Shown here in pieces: positions 2,182 to 51,420 of a stretch of 64,000 nucleotides of DNA (positions are counted from its first letter, which is position 1; every line of letters begins with the position of its first letter). The notes below the pieces were generated by a model. The model searched no databases. It was not told the DNA's origin and saw nothing but the letters and a program-made list of their open reading frames with translations. Where the stretch lies: IMG/VR virus record IMGVR_UViG_3300032373_001170, positions 15,762 to 79,761 of that record; one strand, 5' to 3'. A program made the translations under genes and the position numbers. Source of the DNA: a virus (Duplodnaviria; Caudoviricetes).

Positions 2182-3291
2182 ATGGAGTGTGACATGATTG
2201 GATTTAATGTAGGTGATTTACTTAACTCTCTTAATGTAGTTGGTTTGGCGAAACCATCAAGGGAGGTGATACCTATTCTCGGTAATGTTTATATTAATTA
2301 TGGTGCCAATTCACATTTGCTAGTAACAGATATGGATGTTCAGTTAGCTAGCCGAATTGATATCTCTCGCAGTGATTTAAGTGGTAGCTTGTTGCTACCA
2401 CTTGGTAAGCTAGTTGGCATTTGTAAAGTGCATGATAAGAGTGAAGATGGGGTTATCAATATCGGGGCCAATAATCTCTCTATTCGAATAGGTGTGGGGC
2501 GATATACGTTTAATAAAGTTTCTCCTGATGATTTTCCTGTCCAGGTTTCAAGAGAGGATGAGGAGTCGCTGTGTCCAAGTATATCATCACCGCTTATGAA
2601 AAAATGCGTGCAACTCGTCGAGCATGCTCAAGCAATCAATGACGTTAGATACTATCTCAACGGGATTCACTTTGAGGTTATTGATAACGTTATGCATGTA
2701 GTAGCAACCGACGGACATCGCTTAGCCTATTTTAGGATGGATGTGGATATGAAAAACACTAATTTCACAGTGCCGAAAAAAGGAGTTGAGGTTTTAAAAA
2801 AAGCACTTGACCAGGAGGAGCAAGTGGAGATCAAGGTTGGAAATAAAAGCATTGAGATTGTCGGGGAACAGGTATCCGCAAGATCAAATCTAGTGGATTG
2901 CCGGTACCCTGATTACAGGCAATTTTTTAAGCAGAAAGGCGACTTAAAGGTGCTTGTGAAAAGAGCAGATCTGGTCAATGGCTTAAGACGAGCTGTTATT
3001 ATTTTGGATCTCAAGAGACGAGCTATCAAACTCACGTTTGACAAAGACAAGATAGAAATATTTGCCACGAATGCTGCAGGCGAAACGGCTGACGATGATG
3101 TGCCGTGCTCGATGAGTAAGAATATAAAGCTGGAGCGTGGTTTTAATCCAGAGTACATCCTTGATGCGATCAGTGTTATCGGCTCAGAAAACATTGAGAT
3201 GTGGATAGATCCCAATAGTGATAGCGGTCTAGTTATTATGGGTGAGGGCGATGAATCATACGCTGCGGTAGTGATGCAGATGCGATTGTAG
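2182..3291 (+). CDS. dnaN: DNA polymerase III beta sliding clamp homologue (phage copy)
   Basis: DVRYYLNGIHF, VATDGHRLA, RYPDY and GFNPEYILDAI motifs; about 370 aa. Confidence 0.9.
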   Translation: MECDMIGFNVGDLLNSLNVVGLAKPSREVIPILGNVYINYGANSHLLVTDMDVQLASRIDISRSDLSGSLLLPLGKLVGICKVHDKSEDGVINIGANNLSIRIGVGRYTFNKVSPDDFPVQVSREDEESLCPSISSPLMKKCVQLVEHAQAINDVRYYLNGIHFEVIDNVMHVVATDGHRLAYFRMDVDMKNTNFTVPKKGVEVLKKALDQEEQVEIKVGNKSIEIVGEQVSARSNLVDCRYPDYRQFFKQKGDLKVLVKRADLVNGLRRAVIILDLKRRAIKLTFDKDKIEIFATNAAGETADDDVPCSMSKNIKLERGFNPEYILDAISVIGSENIEMWIDPNSDSGLVIMGEGDESYAAVVMQMRL

Positions 3292-3301
3292 GTGAAGATC
3301 G

Positions 3302-3469
3302 ATGCTTAATATTCCTCAGCTTAAAGGTGGCATGTGCGCAAAATGCAAAGATAGAGACGAAGACTGTAGTCATTTGCCGTTTTACAAAATGCCGGTGATA
3401 AAAAAGGAAGAAGATGCGACTAACGTCAAGCGCAGTTCGTCCAGCCGCCCAGAAAAGCCAAAGAATTAG
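3302..3469 (+). CDS. small Cys-containing phage protein (55 aa, not in ORF track)
   Basis: Translates MLNIPQLKGGMCAKCKDRDEDCSHLPFYKMPVI...; the 3' end runs into an attC-like site. Confidence 0.55.
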   Translation: MLNIPQLKGGMCAKCKDRDEDCSHLPFYKMPVIKKEEDATNVKRSSSSRPEKPKN

Positions 3470-6530: not shown

Positions 6531-7010
6531 TTGATAACAAATAGCTACCAGCCAACTCATCGTCAATTGTGTGATAGAGCAGCTTATTGGTTGCAACAAA
6601 GCAGAAATTGTAAGCTGGTTTTAGTGGAGCGAAATTCTGGAATGGGCGGTGAAGAGCCTGACGCTATTGGATGGACACCTTGCGGGTATAGCTATTTAGT
6701 TGAAGCTAAAGTATCGAGAGCTGATTTTTTAGCTGACGCTAAAAAGCCTCACCGAAAAAAACCACAAAGTGGAATGGGAAAAAGTCGCTTTTTACTGTGC
6801 CCTAAAGGAATGATTCAACCTGAAGAAACGCCTGAAGGCTGGGGTTTGCTCTGGGCTACTGAGCATCAAATTAGGCTTAAAAATCACGACGATTTGGTTA
6901 ACAAAGGTGAATTCGAGATTGATCAAAAAAAGGAAATGCAAATGCTTATCCATTCTTACCGAATGGTAAAGCTTGGCGTGATGATTGTGCCGATTGGAAA
7001 CGAAATTTGA
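6531..7010 (+). CDS. MmcB-like PD-(D/E)XK nuclease-fold phage protein
   Basis: GEEPDAIGW...VEAKVSRADFLADAKKP.R...GMG..R...CP.G.I...E.PEGWGLL. TTG 6531 follows GGAGA. Confidence 0.65.
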   Translation: MITNSYQPTHRQLCDRAAYWLQQSRNCKLVLVERNSGMGGEEPDAIGWTPCGYSYLVEAKVSRADFLADAKKPHRKKPQSGMGKSRFLLCPKGMIQPEETPEGWGLLWATEHQIRLKNHDDLVNKGEFEIDQKKEMQMLIHSYRMVKLGVMIVPIGNEI

Positions 7011-7069
7011 AGACAATAGATTTCTCAAGATACCGAGAACCGTTATTTTAACAATCCGAGACCGAAAAC

Positions 7070-7573
7070 ATGAGTGAAACCGCCAATCTAGAATCAAGAA
7101 GTGCATTAGCTGCTACCAGAGAAGATGTTGTCATATCGCCCTGCTCTATGACTACATCACAAAACGAAAATGACGTAGCTGAAGGTCAATCCGTCTCTAA
7201 GCCATTGCTAGATTTTGCCTACTCATTGGACGACGAAAGATATACAGATTTTGAAAGTATCGTGGACGAAGTTAATTCCGATTATCCAGCAGGTAAAGCA
7301 GTGATAATAAGCAAAGGCGAAAAAATACAATACTCTCACAGTGATTTCATCAACATCGATGTATTTTTTGAGCTTTTGAATGAAGCAGCTTACGAGGAAT
7401 GCGGGGAGTATGGCGAAGACTATATGTGCAAAGTAGATAAAGAAAAGCGCGATGAGCTGAAAAAGATTATATCAGAATGGTTGGGTGAGAATTTTGAAGC
7501 GCCCAACTTCTTTACTGTTAAAAACATAACAAAAATGGAAGTGGTTGCTGTTTGCGCGCCAGAAACTAAATGA
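7070..7573 (+). CDS. hypothetical protein
   Basis: 167-aa acidic ORF; the true start may be further downstream. Confidence 0.6.
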   Translation: MSETANLESRSALAATREDVVISPCSMTTSQNENDVAEGQSVSKPLLDFAYSLDDERYTDFESIVDEVNSDYPAGKAVIISKGEKIQYSHSDFINIDVFFELLNEAAYEECGEYGEDYMCKVDKEKRDELKKIISEWLGENFEAPNFFTVKNITKMEVVAVCAPETK

Positions 7574-7929
7574 ATAAAGAAGTGCTGGACTGCATAGATC
7601 GGCTGAAGGAGGTGTTCCCGAAATCGTTTATTTACAAGAATGACGAGCTGATAGTTGAGCCGAAGAACAATATCTACTTCCGAATTGATGACGTGGAAAG
7701 TGAAATCGATTTTAAGTGCAAGATTGTCGAATGGCTATCTAGGCCAGCACACAAAGGGCTTAGCAAGTGGTGGCAAAGTAGAATTAGAAGCGGGATGAAT
7801 AAGTTTCTCGGGACAGCGTTCACGCCTGAAGAAATGAGCACAATTTACACCCACCTTGGATGCTGCTGCAATCGACAAAAAACAAAGGTCTTTATCTTAT
7901 CTGGATACGATGTTGGTACATTGGCATAA
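7570..7929 (+). CDS. hypothetical protein
   Basis: 119-aa ORF with ATGA overlap; its stop codon lies inside an attC core (TAAC). Confidence 0.7.
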   Translation: MNKEVLDCIDRLKEVFPKSFIYKNDELIVEPKNNIYFRIDDVESEIDFKCKIVEWLSRPAHKGLSKWWQSRIRSGMNKFLGTAFTPEEMSTIYTHLGCCCNRQKTKVFILSGYDVGTLA

Positions 7930-8049
7930 CGGTTTAGCTTACTCGTGCTGTGCGAACTGGAGATTAAACGATGGCAACTGAAACAAGAGAACAACCAAGC
8001 AACAGCGAAACGTCGATACGTAGCGTTGATGTAGAGCCTGCTGTAATGC
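7924..8049 (-). mobile_element. attC-like site (one core degenerate) containing the RBS and start of the next gene
   Basis: Minus strand GCATTAC-5nt-GCT[C]TACA...AGTAAGC-6nt-GTTATGC; unpaired C at position 4 of L''. Confidence 0.65.
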
Positions 8050-8255
8050 CTACCGCTCATCAGGGCGCAGCGGTTGGAGCACTCAGGATCGCACTGTTGG
8101 CGATGGATGAAGCACAGAGACATATCGAAAGCCACTATCTAAATGACCTGATTTTAAATCGAACCGACTATATTGAGAAACAAGCAGAACTCAACAATAT
8201 GCGCTTAGCAGCAGCCGAAGCATTAAAGCCTATGTGGAAAATTGTTGAGGTGTAA
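7971..8255 (+). CDS. hypothetical protein starting inside an attC-like site
   Basis: GGAG RBS at ~7959; the N-terminus is encoded across the attC arm. Confidence 0.6.
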   Translation: MATETREQPSNSETSIRSVDVEPAVMPTAHQGAAVGALRIALLAMDEAQRHIESHYLNDLILNRTDYIEKQAELNNMRLAAAEALKPMWKIVEV

Positions 8256-8281
8256 CGTCGCAACTAACAGGAAACAAGCAC

Positions 8282-8476
8282 ATGAGTATTCAGCCCTGGA
8301 AACACCCTCCATTAAATGAATGGTCTATTTGCGGAATGAACCACTACCACGTTGACGGTGAAAAACGCTTATTTGTATCAATGACAAAAGATGGTAAATG
8401 CATTACTGAAGAAGGTGCTGACAACGAATATTTATGGAATCGCCTTTGGCATAAAGCTGATATGGGGAGAAAATAA
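8282..8476 (+). CDS. small phage hypothetical protein
   Basis: 64 aa, WSICGMNHYHV..LFVSMTKDG.CITEEG. Confidence 0.65.
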   Translation: MSIQPWKHPPLNEWSICGMNHYHVDGEKRLFVSMTKDGKCITEEGADNEYLWNRLWHKADMGRK

Positions 8477-8754
8477 TGTCAAACACAATACCACCAATAA
8501 CAAACCCATTAGGGAAACACTGGCAGCAACCCAAGGTCAGCGAAATTGAAATTGATGATAAATATGCAGTAATGGAAAAGAGTGCATTCAATAAGTTACT
8601 TGAGTATTCAACATCAACACCATCTGGTGTGTATATCGGCAAAATGTGGAAGGGTCAGTACTCAAATGGAAAATGGTATCTAGCTTGGTTTAGTAAAGGT
8701 GATGATGCTGGAACGTACTTGAACAATAACTATAGAATTATATTAGGCGTATAA
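8476..8754 (+). CDS. phage hypothetical protein
   Basis: 92 aa, YSTSTPSGVYIGKMWK; the stop lies in an attC core. Confidence 0.7.
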   Translation: MSNTIPPITNPLGKHWQQPKVSEIEIDDKYAVMEKSAFNKLLEYSTSTPSGVYIGKMWKGQYSNGKWYLAWFSKGDDAGTYLNNNYRIILGV

Positions 8755-8819
8755 CAAATAAGCTCATTTGTTGCGAACGATGTACGAGTGAATAATAAAT
8801 GTGAAGCGCCTGGTTATGG
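8749..8819 (-). mobile_element. attC-like site
   Basis: Minus strand CCATAAC-CAGGC-GCT[T]CACATTT...AAATGAGC-TTATTT-GTTATAC; 5/6-nt spacers. Confidence 0.75.
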
Positions 8820-8833
8820 CGCGTGGAGGAATA

Positions 8834-9739
8834 ATGACACAGATTAACCGAACTGGAAGGGTTGTTTTTGGCGATGTCTCTTTGAGTGTATGGGAAGAAG
8901 GGCTTGGCGGGTCATTGCAAGAGCGCGCAGCCTGGGAAAAGTCTTTTAAAAGACAGGTATTCAAGCGGATCATTCAAACATTAAACCGCATAGGTTGGAA
9001 ATGCGTTATCCCTCAGGATGACATTGATCAGTATGGCCAGCGATTTGCTGAGGGACGACGCTACTGTGTCAAGGGTAATCTGAAAGCCGACTTATCTATT
9101 GCAGGCAGGCACATCGAGCTCAAGATGTTCCAGAATACTAATGCCCCTGATCGCCCAGACCATGAAGGGCGCTATCAGTTCGATAAAGAGAGGCACATGC
9201 CTTACGTAATGCGCCTGGAGATGGAGCGATCCAGGCGGAAGATTAAAGCTTATTTGTGCAATGTATTCTCCGGGTATGAGTTTAAATCTGATAAAAATGA
9301 TGGGCGATCAAATAAATGCGGACCAAGTCACATGACAGCGATGGAATGGCTTGACGGGTGCTACAAGACAAGCTGTCACTTTAAAGGCGACCTAACTACA
9401 TATCAAATTAGTAACTACAACAGAAAGTCAGCTAATGACACTTTATTGAAGCATGGCCAGCGCGTCTGGTTTGCTGATCGAAAAGGGAGAATTTGCACCG
9501 GTATTGCTTACTACAACATTAATAATATGTGGTGGGTGATAACTGGGAAATACGATCATACAAACATGGGCTCACACAAACTCTTCACCGTACAACCTGA
9601 GAACATTCGGCAGAAGCGGAATGAAAGACAGAGAGAGGCAAAACTAAAGAACCTATTAGCTGAATCAGTAGAAGCTATGAAATTCGAGCGATCCGTACAA
9701 CTGCGTGATCTATTGTATCCGGCTGCGATAGCGCCATAA
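8834..9739 (+). CDS. phage hypothetical protein (cassette cargo)
   Basis: GGAGGA RBS before ATG 8834; 301 aa; bounded by attC-like sites. Confidence 0.75.
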   Translation: MTQINRTGRVVFGDVSLSVWEEGLGGSLQERAAWEKSFKRQVFKRIIQTLNRIGWKCVIPQDDIDQYGQRFAEGRRYCVKGNLKADLSIAGRHIELKMFQNTNAPDRPDHEGRYQFDKERHMPYVMRLEMERSRRKIKAYLCNVFSGYEFKSDKNDGRSNKCGPSHMTAMEWLDGCYKTSCHFKGDLTTYQISNYNRKSANDTLLKHGQRVWFADRKGRICTGIAYYNINNMWWVITGKYDHTNMGSHKLFTVQPENIRQKRNERQREAKLKNLLAESVEAMKFERSVQLRDLLYPAAIAP

Positions 9740-9795
9740 CACCCGGCAATAAAGCGCCGACGCTTAAGGAGGTCGCGTTGATTGCTTGGTTATAC
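9734..9795 (-). mobile_element. attC-like site
   Basis: Minus strand GTATAAC-CAAGC-AAT[C]AACG...CTTTATT-GCCGGGT-GTTATGG, with an inner CGAC/GTCG stem. Confidence 0.8.
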
Positions 9796-9814
9796 GAATT
9801 TTGAGGAAGATAAT

Positions 9815-10513
9815 ATGAGAGACTATTTTTATCAAATCAAAGGAAAGGACTCTAGCGAATACGCGAATTCCCCCTGGGCTTGGCCTCCTCTATTTTGCGG
9901 AAAAGTATCCGCTCAAGACAAAAAGGAAGCTAAGCTAATTATTGAAGAAGAATACTGTAGAAAATTCCCTCTTAGAGTGCTTCGTAAAGATTTGGAGCAG
10001 AATCATTACCTGCTAAATATACGGGAGATAGCTGAGAACGACCAGCGGACCCGCGATCTTTTTAATTCTAACGAATGCCAGCAGTGCGGCAAGAAGTTTA
10101 GACGAATCGATCTTTACAATGACCATAACGAATCATATAAAGGTAGCGAATACTGCAGTCAAGAATGCAAGCAGACTTATCTTGAATTAAATCGTGTTGT
10201 TGAGTTGGATGTGACCGGGAATGGTAAGCCGGTAATATACCGAATACGCAACATCAAAACTGATATGTCCTATGTAGGTAAAACCACTCAAGTATTTACA
10301 TTACGTTGGTACCAACATTTCTACCAAGGAGGAGCTTGTAAGTTTCATCAAGCTATAAAAGATTCAAATCTCGACGAATGGGAATTTAGAATTCTGGAAA
10401 TAGTGGATATATCGGATGCGGCTTGTCGAGGTCAACTAATCGCTGATAGAGAGCGTTTCTGGATTAAAACATTAGACACTATTGAATGCGGCTATAACAG
10501 TGCATTCGTATAA
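9815..10513 (+). CDS. Zn-finger plus GIY-YIG nuclease (cassette cargo)
   Basis: CQQC...YCSQEC Zn motif, then VIYRIRNIKTDMSYVGKTTQ..LRWYQH...ERFWI...GYN. Confidence 0.75.
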   Translation: MRDYFYQIKGKDSSEYANSPWAWPPLFCGKVSAQDKKEAKLIIEEEYCRKFPLRVLRKDLEQNHYLLNIREIAENDQRTRDLFNSNECQQCGKKFRRIDLYNDHNESYKGSEYCSQECKQTYLELNRVVELDVTGNGKPVIYRIRNIKTDMSYVGKTTQVFTLRWYQHFYQGGACKFHQAIKDSNLDEWEFRILEIVDISDAACRGQLIADRERFWIKTLDTIECGYNSAFV

Positions 10514-10635
10514 CGAAAAACGTAACCTGTTCACTACCGTAACTTTGAACAGGTAAACGACGATGAATTTTAACCAAGGCAAGCACCACAACGAAACCAC
10601 GCGGTAGTGAATCTGCGTTGACGTGCTTGTTATAT
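10508..10635 (-). mobile_element. attC-like site, 128 nt
   Basis: Minus strand ATATAAC-AAGCA-CGT[C]AACG...GGTTACG-TTTTTC-GTTATAC; inner 10-bp stem TTCACTACCG/CGGTAGTGAA. Confidence 0.85.
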
Positions 10636-10658
10636 TTTTTGAGGTGTGAGGGTGATTA

Positions 10659-10901
10659 ATGATTACTGATAAAATCGAAATATTACACAAGGCCGTGCTA
10701 GATGGTTTTGAAGTCAGGCAGTTTGGCCGAAACAACAACCCGCACATAAGAGCCGAATTGCAAAATTTTAGTACAGGGGAAACCATAGAGTGTAGCTCTA
10801 AAGCAGTCTTGGAGCTTGAGCGAGATAATATGCTAATTCTAGATTGCTGCGCTGGTGGATCTGAATATGCTCTACAGCCTGCATTTAGAAAAGGAGATTG
10901 A
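10659..10901 (+). CDS. hypothetical protein (cassette cargo)
   Basis: 80-aa ORF after GAGG. Confidence 0.55.
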   Translation: MITDKIEILHKAVLDGFEVRQFGRNNNPHIRAELQNFSTGETIECSSKAVLELERDNMLILDCCAGGSEYALQPAFRKGD

Positions 10902-10904
10902 GCA

Positions 10905-11090
10905 ATGCCAACTTACCAAATTGAAAGAGATATCACAGAAGCCAACGGGACTCAGACATTTACAGTCGAGGCAGAAAATGAATTCGAAGCAAGGGAGAAG
11001 TTTGCAGACGGCGCCGGCAAATTGATCGACGAGGAGCTGAATGCCGAAGGGTTAGAACCCGTAGACACATGTGAAGTTTACGAAATATAA
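10905..11090 (+). CDS. small acidic hypothetical protein (cassette cargo)
   Basis: AAGGAG RBS; stop lies inside ATATAAC. Confidence 0.6.
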   Translation: MPTYQIERDITEANGTQTFTVEAENEFEAREKFADGAGKLIDEELNAEGLEPVDTCEVYEI

Positions 11091-11141
11091 CTAATATTAA
11101 AACGCATAAATGCGGATATACACTGCTTTGAGGAGATTTGT

Positions 11142-11402
11142 ATGGCAAAAAAGGATGAAGAGGCTTTGTGGGTGATAACAGATCATGTCTGTCGGTTCTG
11201 TTTTGGTCGAGTTCTCCGGTCGCAAGACGGGGCTTTGGTAAGGTGTGCAGATTGTTCGGCCCAAGTAAAGAATAAAAAAGTAACTGAGTTATGCGCCTGT
11301 GGTCAGGAATATAAAACAGGTGGGCCAGTTGCTTTGAAATGCAAGAAGAATCCAGAGCATATTGTCGGCATCGGTCAAGAAGTCATGGTCGAGCACGGTT
11401 AA
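11142..11402 (+). CDS. Cys-rich Zn-binding protein
   Basis: CRFC, CADC, CACG; GAGGAG RBS. Confidence 0.6.
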   Translation: MAKKDEEALWVITDHVCRFCFGRVLRSQDGALVRCADCSAQVKNKKVTELCACGQEYKTGGPVALKCKKNPEHIVGIGQEVMVEHG

Positions 11403-11453
11403 ATAGTACGTAATTTGCGCAGCGCTATCATTCACTATCGTTCTCTCTATCAT

Positions 11454-11468
11454 TCGTGAAGATACTAT
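11454..11468 (+). promoter_or_regulatory. putative late promoter TCGTGA-N3-TACTAT
   Basis: Recurrent motif; upstream of the terminase genes. Confidence 0.65.
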
Positions 11469-11506
11469 CAAATAAATATTGATAGTACTGATAGCTGAGG
11501 GCGGTA

Positions 11507-12112
11507 GTGGCGGTATCAAAAGAAATTAAGTTACAAGCTGTTAGCGATATCCAGCAGCACTTGAAAAATGTTGGCTCAAAGGATTGGGCCAAATTGAGAG
11601 TGAAGTACAAAGACGTGCCTGAGCCAACGTTTTTTCGATGGGTCAAGGCGATTAAAGAGGGGAAGCTGACAACAAAAAAGCAGGTTAAGTCTCATCAAAA
11701 GCAGATCGAGCGTGAGATGAAATCGGGGAAGCGAGTAGCGAAAGCGCTTCCTGTTGCGCCACCTCCTAGCTACATATCCAAAACCGAAGGCGAAGAAAAT
11801 AACGGCACTGATCTCGTTGATTTTATGACGCAGTATGAGTTTCTGTACAACGATGCGGTGATGCTTCGCGATGCATCTTTCAATGCTGATGGCAAGCTTC
11901 GTAATGCGCGGACGTTTGGTGACTCAGTAAAGCTCAGAACATCTCTACTTGATACAAAGCTGAAGGCCCTAAAGGAAATATGGGATCTTCAGCAAATGCA
12001 AAAATTCTACGAAGTTGTTCTCTTTGAAATACGACAAGAAAATCCGGAGACGGTAAAGCGAATTATTAAGCGTTTGCGCGAAGCCAATGCGCTGCACGGT
12101 ATGTCAGTTTAG
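11507..12112 (+). CDS. putative terminase small subunit (HTH)
   Basis: VPEPTFFRWV HTH-like segment; directly upstream of terL. Confidence 0.5.
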   Translation: MAVSKEIKLQAVSDIQQHLKNVGSKDWAKLRVKYKDVPEPTFFRWVKAIKEGKLTTKKQVKSHQKQIEREMKSGKRVAKALPVAPPPSYISKTEGEENNGTDLVDFMTQYEFLYNDAVMLRDASFNADGKLRNARTFGDSVKLRTSLLDTKLKALKEIWDLQQMQKFYEVVLFEIRQENPETVKRIIKRLREANALHGMSV

Positions 12113-12114
12113 GC

Positions 12115-14133
12115 GTGGCTAGAATCCCGAATTACCAACGCGGTCTTGATGACATGCTTATGGAGCTGGAGCTGGAGACTGGTTATCGCCTAAAAACTGT
12201 TGTTATTCCTCCTGAAATGACATTTAGGGAATGGGTCGAGAAGTTGGGCCGTGAAGGGTTAAAGGTAGATGGAAAGCCGTTCACTCTTGATAATCGCGGT
12301 GCTCTGCACTTTATTTACGATCTTATACCAACCACGATTGAGGAAGCGCATAAAAAACATATTGTGCTGATGAAGGGTGCCCAGATGGGGCTGACGGTGT
12401 GGGAAATGCTCGCTGATATTTACATGGCGATCAAGTTTACACCTTGCTCGATTGGTATGTATGTCCCGTCTTCAATGCTCGCACCATACAAATCAACGCA
12501 TCGTTTCTTACCAGTACTGCGGACTGTCCCAGATGCTTATCAAATGCTGCTTGAATCAGGTAGAGCGGATGGCAGTAAACGCTCAAGCGAAGGTAATGTA
12601 TTAACTCGAGTACTTGGTGATTCAAAACTGTTGTTTCTATGGACTACAGGTAGCGTAGCGACAGAATCATTTCCGCTAGATATTATCAGCTTTGATGAAG
12701 TGCAAGAAATGCTCGTTGCTGACATGGAAAAGGTTATGGAACGGATGTCGGCGTCGGACATTAAGTACGTCATGATGTTGTCTACAGCAAAATGGCCCGA
12801 TTCTGATATTCACTACTGGTATAAGCAGGGCAAGGAATACCAGTTTCATAACACTTGCGGTTGTGAAGGTGGCGTTATCTTGGATGAAGAGTTTCCAGAT
12901 TGCATCCAGTATAACGATGGGAAATACGGTGAAGCGACAAAAGGCGAATATGTATATGCCTGCCCCAAGTGTGGCGAGCATATTCCAGACAATCAAGCTG
13001 GCGAATGGGTTGCAAAATATCCAGAGGCTCATATTGACAGTGCACACCTTCCTCAGTTAATTAGCGCAACGGTCACACCGGGCGAAATGCTTCTGGCATT
13101 CAATAACGCGACTGATATGCAGAACTTTTACAATAGAAAGTTAGGCAAGCCGTTTGCGGATCCATCACAGATACCGATTAACTTAGCCATGCTAAATCTT
13201 TGTGCCGAGGATGGTATGAAGATTGGGTTGAAATGGAAAACGTCAGCAAAAGATACTTACATGGGTATTGATCAGATGGGGGCATTTAATTGTGTAATGA
13301 TTAAAGAACGGTTACCGGACGGGCGTCAAGCTGTCATCCATGTGGAGTCCATCTATCAAAACGATCCTTTTTCCCGGTGCGATGACATAATCAGGGAGTT
13401 TGGCGTGTCAGTTTGCGTCGTTGAAACACTGCCGAATTATAATGATGCAAAGCGGTTTGCTATTAGATGGCCAGGCCGTGTATTTCTTGCTAGTTACAAA
13501 AAACTAGAGAATGATATGATTCAATGGGGTGATGCGAAGCAATCTAAAGCAGACAGAAAAACAGATGAGAACGAACGTGACAGATATACGGTAATGCTTG
13601 ATCAGTACAAATGCATGCAGACATCGATGTCCAGATTTTCAAAACGTCAATGCGTTTTTCCTGATCCGAAAGGACTCTACCAAGATATCCTAGAAAAAGG
13701 TATGAAGAAACGGATTGCGATTCTGCAGGATGAGGTATTCCTTCACTTCACGAAAACTGCGCTAGTAGTAGAAAAAGATCCTGATGAGAAGAAGTTTAAA
13801 CGAAAAGTTGTGAAAGTTGGTATCGATCCGCATTACAGTTATACAAACATGTTGTGCGATGTCGCCTGGGCAAGAGCTCATGGCACGACATCATTCATAT
13901 TAGCTAATGAAACAAGGGAGTTAGATCACGTGCAGGATAAAATTGTTGAAGCTATGCCGGGATTGCCAGCAGAGGTTGTCGATATGCTTGCGGAGTTGTC
14001 TGGCGATGTTTGTGGACGCTGCATTTCGTATGAAAAGGATAAGTCGAAGTGTGAATCGCGAAATCTCTTAGTCAGGGCTAAAGATCCTGGTTGTTTTGAG
14101 TTTATCGTTAATCCTTTTTACTCTAAGACTTAG
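12115..14133 (+). CDS. terminase large subunit (lambda GpA-like)
   Basis: MKGAQMGLT Walker A variant, ISFDEVQEM Walker B, Zn ribbons, MGIDQMG nuclease motif. Confidence 0.85.
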   Translation: MARIPNYQRGLDDMLMELELETGYRLKTVVIPPEMTFREWVEKLGREGLKVDGKPFTLDNRGALHFIYDLIPTTIEEAHKKHIVLMKGAQMGLTVWEMLADIYMAIKFTPCSIGMYVPSSMLAPYKSTHRFLPVLRTVPDAYQMLLESGRADGSKRSSEGNVLTRVLGDSKLLFLWTTGSVATESFPLDIISFDEVQEMLVADMEKVMERMSASDIKYVMMLSTAKWPDSDIHYWYKQGKEYQFHNTCGCEGGVILDEEFPDCIQYNDGKYGEATKGEYVYACPKCGEHIPDNQAGEWVAKYPEAHIDSAHLPQLISATVTPGEMLLAFNNATDMQNFYNRKLGKPFADPSQIPINLAMLNLCAEDGMKIGLKWKTSAKDTYMGIDQMGAFNCVMIKERLPDGRQAVIHVESIYQNDPFSRCDDIIREFGVSVCVVETLPNYNDAKRFAIRWPGRVFLASYKKLENDMIQWGDAKQSKADRKTDENERDRYTVMLDQYKCMQTSMSRFSKRQCVFPDPKGLYQDILEKGMKKRIAILQDEVFLHFTKTALVVEKDPDEKKFKRKVVKVGIDPHYSYTNMLCDVAWARAHGTTSFILANETRELDHVQDKIVEAMPGLPAEVVDMLAELSGDVCGRCISYEKDKSKCESRNLLVRAKDPGCFEFIVNPFYSKT

Positions 14134-14841: not shown

Positions 14842-14884
14842 AATATACATTCACGACATATTGTAAATGTCGTGAATATAAGAT
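14842..14884. promoter_or_regulatory. divergent pair of putative late promoters
   Basis: Minus TCGTGA-ATG-TATATT (14856-14842) and plus TCGTGA-ATA-TAAGAT (14870-14884). Confidence 0.7.
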
Positions 14885-14891
14885 TCATCAC

Positions 14892-19705: not shown

Positions 19706-19720
19706 TCGTGAATATAAAAT
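19706..19720 (+). promoter_or_regulatory. putative late promoter TCGTGA-ATA-TAAAAT
   Basis: Recurrent motif. Confidence 0.65.
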
Positions 19721-19746
19721 TGTCGCAACTTTAAAAGAGGTGCGAT

Positions 19747-23473: not shown

Positions 23474-23488
23474 TCGTGAACTTATATT
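23474..23488 (+). promoter_or_regulatory. putative late promoter TCGTGA-ACT-TATATT
   Basis: Recurrent motif. Confidence 0.65.
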
Positions 23489-23537
23489 AACGGTCGAACA
23501 TGATGGTTTTGTTTCACGTAACAAATCGGAGAAATTA

Positions 23538-24092: not shown

Positions 24093-24107
24093 TCGTGAGC
24101 ATAATAT
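24093..24107 (+). promoter_or_regulatory. putative late promoter TCGTGA-GCA-TAATAT
   Basis: Recurrent motif directly after the terminator. Confidence 0.7.
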
Positions 24108-24135
24108 CAAGGCACGTACAAAAGGAGAAAACCAG

Positions 24136-25607: not shown

Positions 25608-25622
25608 TCGTGAGCTGATAAT
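25608..25622 (+). promoter_or_regulatory. variant late promoter TCGTGA-GCT-GATAAT
   Basis: One mismatch in the -10 element. Confidence 0.55.
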
Positions 25623-25654
25623 TGGCCACTAATAACTCGAATTAGTGGCCGCTC

Positions 25655-31873: not shown

Positions 31874-31955
31874 ACACCTAGCCGAAAAGGATCAATGGTT
31901 TTTGAAGTGTAGCCGGTGACGCAGGTCGTTACCATAGGCTATCTTCAGGTGATTG

Positions 31956-31970
31956 TCGTGAATGTAATAT
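31956..31970 (+). promoter_or_regulatory. putative late promoter TCGTGA-ATG-TAATAT
   Basis: 6 nt upstream of ATG 31977. Confidence 0.7.
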
Positions 31971-31976
31971 TTCGAC

Positions 31977-36690: not shown

Positions 36691-36749
36691 ATCCCCTGGA
36701 ATACTCTTTTACTTTCTTTATACAGCGTTGTGTTTGCCGTAACTCGTAG

Positions 36750-36764
36750 TCGTGAAACTATATT
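36750..36764 (+). promoter_or_regulatory. putative late promoter TCGTGA-AAC-TATATT (capsid operon)
   Basis: Recurrent motif. Confidence 0.7.
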
Positions 36765-51373: not shown

Positions 51374-51405
51374 AATACTACTTCCTTGATGGTTTGGGTG
51401 TGTCG

Positions 51406-51420
51406 TCGTGATCCTATCAT
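51406..51420 (+). promoter_or_regulatory. putative late promoter TCGTGA-TCC-TATCAT
   Basis: 6 nt upstream of ATG 51427. Confidence 0.7.

Follow-up and report, generated by a model that had tools for sequence, protein, structure and literature searches.

What are the hairpins that separate a run of small genes immediately upstream of the packaging genes in a prophage from a microbial mat? The prophage is a 79.7-kb IMG/VR record from a microbial-mat metagenome, classed as a provirus (IMGVR_UViG_3300032373_001170), and the stretch analyzed, here called the window, comprises 64,000 nucleotides of it (record bases 15762-79761). A reading made from the letters of the window, without database searches (the sequence-only reading), had proposed that phage genes at 7924-11104 are packaged like integron cassettes between inverted attC sites. 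Our reading is that 7930-11090, in the accessory region of the prophage, is probably a CALIN, a group of clustered attC sites of the integron type without an integron integrase. The sites of this right-arm array are attC-type by build and ancestry and are of mixed quality. Geometry, cores, the model scores of one site, homology, and a further set of attCs in the left arm of the same record all support the proposal of an inverted attC-type array in a phage with no integron integrase (IntI) nearby. The array looks old and partly decayed, with one adequate fold, one weak fold, one fold that is out-competed, and remnants at both ends.

An integron integrase binds attC as a folded bottom strand, which it cuts between the A and the C of AAC in the R' box. 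The consensus ends of attC are an inverse core, R'' (RYYYAAC), and a core, R' (GTTRRRY). Three sites in the window, w2, w3, and w4, have this build when the minus strand is read: R'' (NNATAAC) is followed by a 5-nt spacer and an L'' box of 3 bp, an unpaired fourth base, and at least two further base pairs, and after a variable middle come L', an L'-R' spacer of 6, 7, and 6 nt, respectively, and GTTATNN. Their cores depart from the RYYY letters at one or two positions and are of the type found in Vibrio, Shewanella, and the Pseudoalteromonas phage PH101. The plus strand of w4 corresponds to the bottom strand and bears the extrahelical G. The sites and the remnants at the two ends of the array are as follows, with the unpaired base in brackets.

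7924-7968, minus strand: probable decayed site, low confidence; GCATAACGGTTT matches the start of the sites in a related locus (L003), and the far core is ATTAAAC, with no L' partner
8749-8819, minus strand: w2, weak attC-like site of 71 nt; CCATAAC-CAGGC-GCT[T]CA ... TGAGC-TTATTT-GTTATAC
9734-9795, minus strand: w3, 62 nt; GTATAAC-CAAGC-AAT[C]AAC ... TTATT-GCCGGGT-GTTATGG
10508-10635, minus strand: w4, 128 nt; ATATAAC-AAGCA-CGT[C]AAC ... GTTACG-TTTTTC-GTTATAC
11083-11106, minus strand: half site; R' core (GTTATATTT on the minus strand) and an L'-like TGCGTT, with no R''/L'' half following

The half site, a 24-nt stretch, is 71% complementary to 10614-10637, and its core matches 9/9. The sequence-only reading had listed four palindromes with attC geometry on the minus strand. 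Three of them (8749-8819, 9734-9795, and 10508-10635) were recovered by a rule-based detector written for this exact build (spacer, 3 bp, unpaired base, partner arm, and GTTATNN), but the fourth, at 7924-8049, must be given up: it folds worse than shuffled sequences (z = +1.9), overlaps an open reading frame (ORF) at 7971-8255, and has no model score. The looser core pair 8043/8248 and the cassette proposed at 8050-8249 likewise find no support. The shorter stretch at 7924-7968 (45 nt), which has no model match and is set where a 41-nt intergenic gap follows the gene at 7570-7929, is probably a decayed attC-type site, to judge from its sequence.

On the minus strand of the window the detector finds w2, w3, and w4, and on the plus strand it finds nothing; its background rate, measured in 3.8 Mb of related phage DNA, is 2.2 hits per 64 kb of strand. 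In controls on three true integrons it detected 14 of 16 attCs in that of Vibrio anguillarum on phage Va_90-11-286_p16, ten in that of Shewanella M16-3, and four, of class 1, in that of a P1 isolate. Two covariance models were built as well, R1 from 14 V. anguillarum attCs and R2 from 17 Shewanella, Vibrio, and TJE1 attCs with the R and L pairs as structure; the training sites adjoin real integron integrases or were bench-tested. True class 1 attCs score 20 to 27 bits with R1, while R2 gives 20 to 33 bits for held-out class 1 attCs and 31 to 48 bits for the four PH101 sites. With R1, w4 scores 21.9 bits over its full length on the minus strand, and with R2 it scores 19.3 bits (E = 0.025), the best match in the window on either strand. 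Its 5' 40 nt align base for base with true Vibrio (V. anguillarum) attCs and with attC1 of PH101. A search of 7000-12500 against Rfam, in which we know of no attC family, gave no match at E values up to 5.

The cores are arranged in a manner that single hairpins would not reveal. As the sequence-only reading had noted, they are complementary across neighboring sites: GTTATGGCGC (8813), the inverse core R'' of w2, is complementary at 10/10 positions to GCGCCATAAC, the core at 9731; GTTATACGAAT (9789) matches ATTCGTATAAC (10504) at 11/11; and GTTATATTT (10629) matches AAATATAAC (11083) at 9/9. When every GTTAT in the whole window was listed with each ATAAC 100 to 3000 nt downstream, these 11-, 10-, and 9-nt pairs ranked first, second, and fifth by outward complementarity among about 330 pairs. 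The three pairs form a chain in which each encloses one gene unit, and the same complementarity between neighboring sites is found in the V. anguillarum control array and in a phage genome, G001, described below. The match between neighbors is better than that between the ends of a single site because the core of a cassette pairs with the cassette's own start, which lies in the previous site. Matching cores thus indicate separate insertions, and the chain would be the footprint of circular cassettes inserted one at a time.

The stop codons fit the same pattern. The sequence-only reading held that the ORFs use the TAA of TAAC as their stop, and indeed five of the 69 plus-strand genes of the window end in the context ATAAC, all five within 7570-11090; by our own count, the chance of finding five such genes within eight neighboring genes is about 3 in 10,000. 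Since the plus (coding) strand corresponds to the attC bottom strand, which is cut between the A and the C of AAC, each predicted junction falls directly after a TAA stop: AA|C on the plus strand at 7929|7930, 8754|8755, 9739|9740, 10513|10514, and 11090|11091. Each unit would consist of a C, the folded site, a ribosome-binding site, one or more ORFs, and TAA, so that a site stands in front of its gene. The units and genes delimited in this way are listed here.

7570-7929, plus strand: gene of phrog_7711
7930-8754, plus strand: possible older unit, low confidence; the decayed site with three small ORFs; end cores match 6/8
7971-8255, 8282-8476, and 8476-8754, plus strand: the three small ORFs, the third of phrog_24427
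8755-9739, plus strand: putative cassette C; w2 with the gene at 8834-9739, whose last codons form the complementary core; flanking sites of the same type in L003
8834-9739, plus strand: phrog_7674 gene, 301 amino acids, no known function (PHROG match, 2e-104)
9740-10513, plus strand: putative cassette B; w3 with the GIY-YIG gene; flanking cores 11/11
ATG 9815 or TTG 9782 to 10513, plus strand: GIY-YIG homing endonuclease gene (Pfam GIY-YIG, 8e-10; NCBIfam group I intron endonuclease)
10514-11090, plus strand: putative cassette A; w4 with two small ORFs; flanking cores 9/9
10659-10901 (80 amino acids) and 10905-11090 (61 amino acids), plus strand: the two small ORFs, of no family except for a weak phrog_10718 match

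Three core-flanked units agree with the cassettes proposed by the sequence-only reading, but their boundaries lie at AA|C after the stop codons and not at the edges of the palindromes.

Hairpins between genes could also be ordinary expression signals, such as terminators, RNA-processing or stabilizing elements, or translational controls, with the likeness to attC a coincidence or driven by the TAA-C context. Every site does have a stop codon before it and a ribosome-binding site after it. Within the loop of w3 (9765-9784) there is a perfect AAGGAGG 5 nt ahead of the TTG at 9782, in frame with the GIY-YIG ORF; that gene may therefore begin within the site and not at ATG 9815. As a free single strand w2 has no more structure than shuffled sequences (z = -0.1), with an ensemble energy of -7 kcal/mol and a fold probability of 0.06, and w4 favors two local hairpins, the second followed by a run of T. 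Folding of w3 is as a single imperfect hairpin (-9.4 kcal/mol, z = -1.5), and its bottom strand takes up the recombinogenic fold, in which both boxes are paired, with an estimated probability of 0.26, compared with 0.003 to 0.89 for true attCs. Scans for sigma-70 promoters and for intrinsic terminators, in which a T run directly follows a GC-rich stem, are, however, empty at the three sites, with no enrichment over shuffles, and expression signals do not explain a complementarity of 9 to 11 nt across a whole gene three times in succession. They would also leave the 5-nt spacer, the bulge at the fourth base, the model matches, and the homology with attCs unexplained, and we consider it improbable that the hairpins are signals of this kind.

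Reading the hairpins as attC sites finds further agreement in the left arm of the same provirus, adjoining int and 12.5 to 12.9 kb before the start of the window. Two attCs lie there at record positions 2849-2933 and 3131-3233 (L175), with R2 scores of 39.0 and 35.6 bits and fold probabilities of 0.79 and 0.91; their neighboring cores are complementary, and weaker candidates are found at 2086-2170 and 3377-3453 of the record. Under the rule that a CALIN has at least two model-supported attCs close together and no intI nearby, the left arm qualifies, its two sites, of 39 and 36 bits, being separated by 198 nt, and the right arm offers only w4 at about 20 bits. The top strand of the left-arm attCs is the plus strand and the genes there are on the minus strand, so the sites are inverted relative to the genes in the same way as in the right arm. 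One left-arm cassette gene (L175:3228-3545, minus strand) encodes a protein of 105 amino acids that is almost solely an FtsK-gamma domain (Pfam, 9.5e-26). FtsK-gamma is the part of FtsK that activates XerD, and the protein might influence Xer-type or related recombination. The left-arm site family is found in eight IMG/VR contigs and in 24 metagenome contigs; a protein search of the metagenome contigs, which are short, for IntI found none.

No integron integrase was noted in the window by the sequence-only reading, and the same is true of the whole 79.7-kb record in a TIGR02249 search; intI and attI beside the array, which mark a complete integron, are thus not present. The sole tyrosine recombinase of the record, at the left end, matches Phage_integrase weakly and would fit as the integrase of the prophage. 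With no IntI encoded in the record, any movement would need a host IntI acting in trans. We infer IntI-mediated insertion, present activity, and a host enzyme alike.

Relatives of the sites occur in several other phages. A site of the w4 family is present in G001 (L187:3650-3772), and members of the w3 family (L193:1116-1176 and L194:7211-7270) lie inside arrays of multiple attCs. G001 (L221:1-10000 and L222), G002 (L220), and G003 (L219), which are among the IMG/VR records with the left-arm site family, are complete or near-complete phage genomes that are unrelated by terminase, G001 having direct terminal repeats. Each has six to eight attCs at E <= 0.01, and in a filter-free search the parts examined gave 8 to 23 candidates per genome at E <= 0.5; both the w3 and the w4 families have members inside these arrays. 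Neither an integron integrase nor a tyrosine recombinase was found in these three genomes or in a further one, G005.

In IMG/VR, 63 loci are homologous to the phrog_7674 gene, most of them without such sites. The closest two relatives (L002 and L003, with a GC content of 54 to 55%) have sites of the same build, place, and orientation, with cores complementary across genes; in about 0.9 Mb of related loci, the within-site extension of the cores was found in these two only. One L002 site scores 22.9 bits. One L002 core follows a TAG stop, and coding constraint therefore cannot account for that match. A prophage in a gammaproteobacterial metagenome-assembled genome (L066:5667-6452; GC content, 61%) has a terminase with 54% identity to that of our phage and, at the corresponding place upstream of it, three sites whose cores form a complementary chain; these sites are inverted relative to the genes, with the cores GCATAAC/GTTATGC and GCCGAAC/GTTCGGC and R2 scores of only about 10 bits.

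Megablast of the region against phage collections gave no match, and blastn returned only a 120-nt coding match. The pattern ATAACAAKCACGTCAACG was searched for in IMG/VR and set aside, since 11 of 11 matches fell in one conserved, probably coding stretch and not in attCs. A second microbial-mat sample holds the same phage without differences, and contigs of other samples include no variant showing gain or loss of a unit. One contig of the second sample ends exactly at 9739, leaving 9740-9761 uncovered; we do not count this as evidence, and no contig joins across. In a third microbial-mat sample, a contig includes a site resembling w4 (corresponding to 10568-10615, with 6 differences in 48 nt) and runs on into unrelated sequence, indicating that the w4 attC family is repeated in the community.

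The orientation of the genes distinguishes these arrays from integrons. The sequence-only reading had placed all ORFs antisense to the attC sites, and in the right-arm array the genes are on the attC bottom strand in four of four intervals. Orientation was taken from the longest ORF on each strand between neighboring sites, with the following counts.

Three real integrons: attC top strand, 28; opposite strand, 3
Right-arm array: attC top strand, 0; opposite strand, 4
G001-G003 and G005: attC top strand, 4; opposite strand, 35
Metagenome contigs: attC top strand, 6; opposite strand, 23

The difference between the real integrons and the four phage genomes is significant (Fisher p = 4e-12). In G001, the attC strand switches at about 5 to 6.5 kb together with the gene strand. 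The annotated genes of PH101 likewise lie on the attC bottom strand, and TJE1 is without this inversion. One suggestion is that genes on the bottom strand expose the recombinogenic strand, which integron integrases would fold and cut, during transcription and lagging-strand synthesis. It is conceivable, at somewhat less than even chances in our estimate, that a phage-adapted pool of cassettes circulates among unrelated recombinase-free temperate and virulent phages, using host IntI and taking in ordinary phage genes, phrog_7674 among them. With genes on the bottom strand in such a pool, the recombinogenic strand would be the non-template and lagging-template one and would be exposed as the phage is transcribed and replicated. 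An insertion target for IntI could be the GTTATGG that occurs naturally where the phrog_7674 gene ends.

The same orientation could be taken to mean that the sites, integron-like in form, serve another recombinase, Xer-type or some other host or phage enzyme, with the likeness due to a shared folded-hairpin mechanism. The genes are indeed on the opposite strand from those of bacterial integrons, and one left-arm cassette encodes an FtsK-gamma domain; no IntI is present in the record, in G001-G003, or in G005, and the latter four have no tyrosine recombinase either. Yet models trained solely on attCs served by IntI fit the sites, even in the 5-nt spacer and in which base is extrahelical. IntI1 recombines the sites of PH101, which are closely similar, and the surroundings of these arrays yielded no candidate for another enzyme. 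We consider service to another recombinase unlikely.

Several results count against the attC-cassette reading of the right arm. R1 and R2 are custom-built and distinct from the attC model of IntegronFinder. The sequence-only reading had called for an attC covariance model to be run on both strands, and although w4 came out as the top match, w3 remains below significance (R1, 11.3 bits; R2, 11.7 bits) despite exact ends in both models, and w2 gets no score from either, nor does 7924-8049. The recombinogenic fold probability of w4 is only 5e-5, because two local hairpins out-compete the attC fold. The C-terminal codons that form one of the cores are conserved across the gene family, and part of that core match therefore predates any cassette. 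A tblastn search of the cassette proteins against all arrays examined found none that is shared, so that movement of these genes as cassettes is putative. The relatives of the terminase in bacterial genomes are at most 59% identical and belong to diverse Proteobacteria, and so point to no particular host. Finally, homologues of the phrog_7674 gene and of the GIY-YIG endonuclease (42% identity) are adjacent in another phage (L030:4001-6297) without any attC, so some of this arrangement may be older than the sites or may be due to homing.

This last observation suggests that the GIY-YIG endonuclease homes beside the phrog_7674 gene, and it raises the question of whether the whole region is a mosaic produced by such homing or by homologous recombination between short intergenic modules. 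In T4-type phages, the modules that shuffle genes consist of a repeated early promoter and a stem-loop. Here w3 and w4 have about 20 nt in common at one end (GCGTTGA..TGCTTG.TTATA), one unit is a homing-endonuclease gene that is found beside phrog_7674 elsewhere as well, and the phrog_7674 gene occurs in three unrelated contexts, its neighbors differing in all three of its closest relatives. Beyond these 20 nt, however, the sites share only their 5- to 7-nt cores, too little for homologous exchange, and there is no promoter signal at the hairpins. Homing accounts for one unit at most, and neither for the bulged-hairpin geometry nor for the chain of cores. We consider an origin of the region by either route very improbable, and a cluster of attC sites remains our preferred explanation.

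The carrier is a temperate, myovirus-like prophage, and the array is in its accessory region, immediately upstream of the packaging genes; the sequence-only reading had called this stretch an early region, which it is not clearly. The plus strand carries nearly all genes of the window. These include the genes for the large terminase (12115-14133), portal, major head protein, tail sheath, and a DarB-like giant protein. To the right, the array is bounded by a conserved set of genes.

11142-14133, plus strand: conserved right border, consisting of a zinc-ribbon gene, a 201-amino-acid gene, and the large terminase gene (phrog_675, 1.7e-84)

Homologues of the zinc-ribbon gene were found in 25 related loci, and those of the 201-amino-acid gene in 43. 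Separately, we note that the motif (T)GTCGTGA, followed 4 to 6 nt later by a TATAAT-like hexamer, recurs ahead of numerous structural and cargo genes, probably as a late promoter or an activator site of the phage. Its occurrences are given here.

14860-14885, 19706-19725, 23474-23495, 24095-24115, 25608-25630, 31950-31975, 36735-36760, and 51395-51420: (T)GTCGTGA with a TATAAT-like hexamer

CALINs in phages, including sites very like w4, are already published, and the array described here is a further example. Qi et al. 2023 (PMC9892861) reported CALINs in phages and showed that IntI1 recombines attC1 of PH101, with the bottom strand preferred. In the CALIN of this Pseudoalteromonas phage (PH101/H101), as in our array, attCs with NNATAAC/GTTATNN cores lie between small genes of a tailed phage that has no IntI, the genes are on the attC bottom strand, and the first 33 nt of w4 and of PH101 attC1 are almost the same. 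The PH101 sites score 31 to 48 bits and are recombined by IntI1, whereas the right-arm sites score 0 to 22 bits and are known from sequence. The present phage also differs in being temperate, in having two arrays in opposite arms, and in carrying recognizable phage genes as cargo (phrog_7674 and a homing endonuclease).

The sedentary chromosomal integrons of Vibrionales and Alteromonadales, with repeats of the Vibrio cholerae type and represented here by the V. anguillarum array of phage Va_90-11-286_p16, resemble the right-arm array in having long (about 125 nt) and short attCs with ATAAC/GTTAT cores, a 5-nt R''-L'' spacer, a bulged fourth base, and cores complementary to the next inverse core. 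In contrast to the right-arm array, they lie beside intI and attI, and their sites are far more uniform. In integrons, cassette genes on the attC top strand can be read from Pc; the true integrons have this orientation in 28 of 31 intervals, compared with 0 of 4 in this array. A host IntI could possibly bring cassettes to plain GTT sites through the insertion at non-att GTT sites (attG) described by Loot et al. (bioRxiv 10.1101/2022.09.11.507474); it was demonstrated in the Escherichia coli chromosome and not in phage DNA, and its use here would be by analogy. Our literature searches found no description of a consistent inversion of the gene strand, which Qi et al. do not discuss, of site families common to unrelated recombinase-free phages, or of typical phage genes as cargo.

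Taken alone, the right-arm array is a modest, partly decayed example of its kind. If host IntI does act on such sites, phages and bacterial integrons would draw on one pool of cassettes, and phages could swap accessory genes singly and with base-pair precision. The orientation rule would offer a handle on how exposure of the strand controls the dynamics of cassettes and may help to explain how genes are converted into cassettes. If phage genes are recruited in this way, the process would bear on how cassettes are born.

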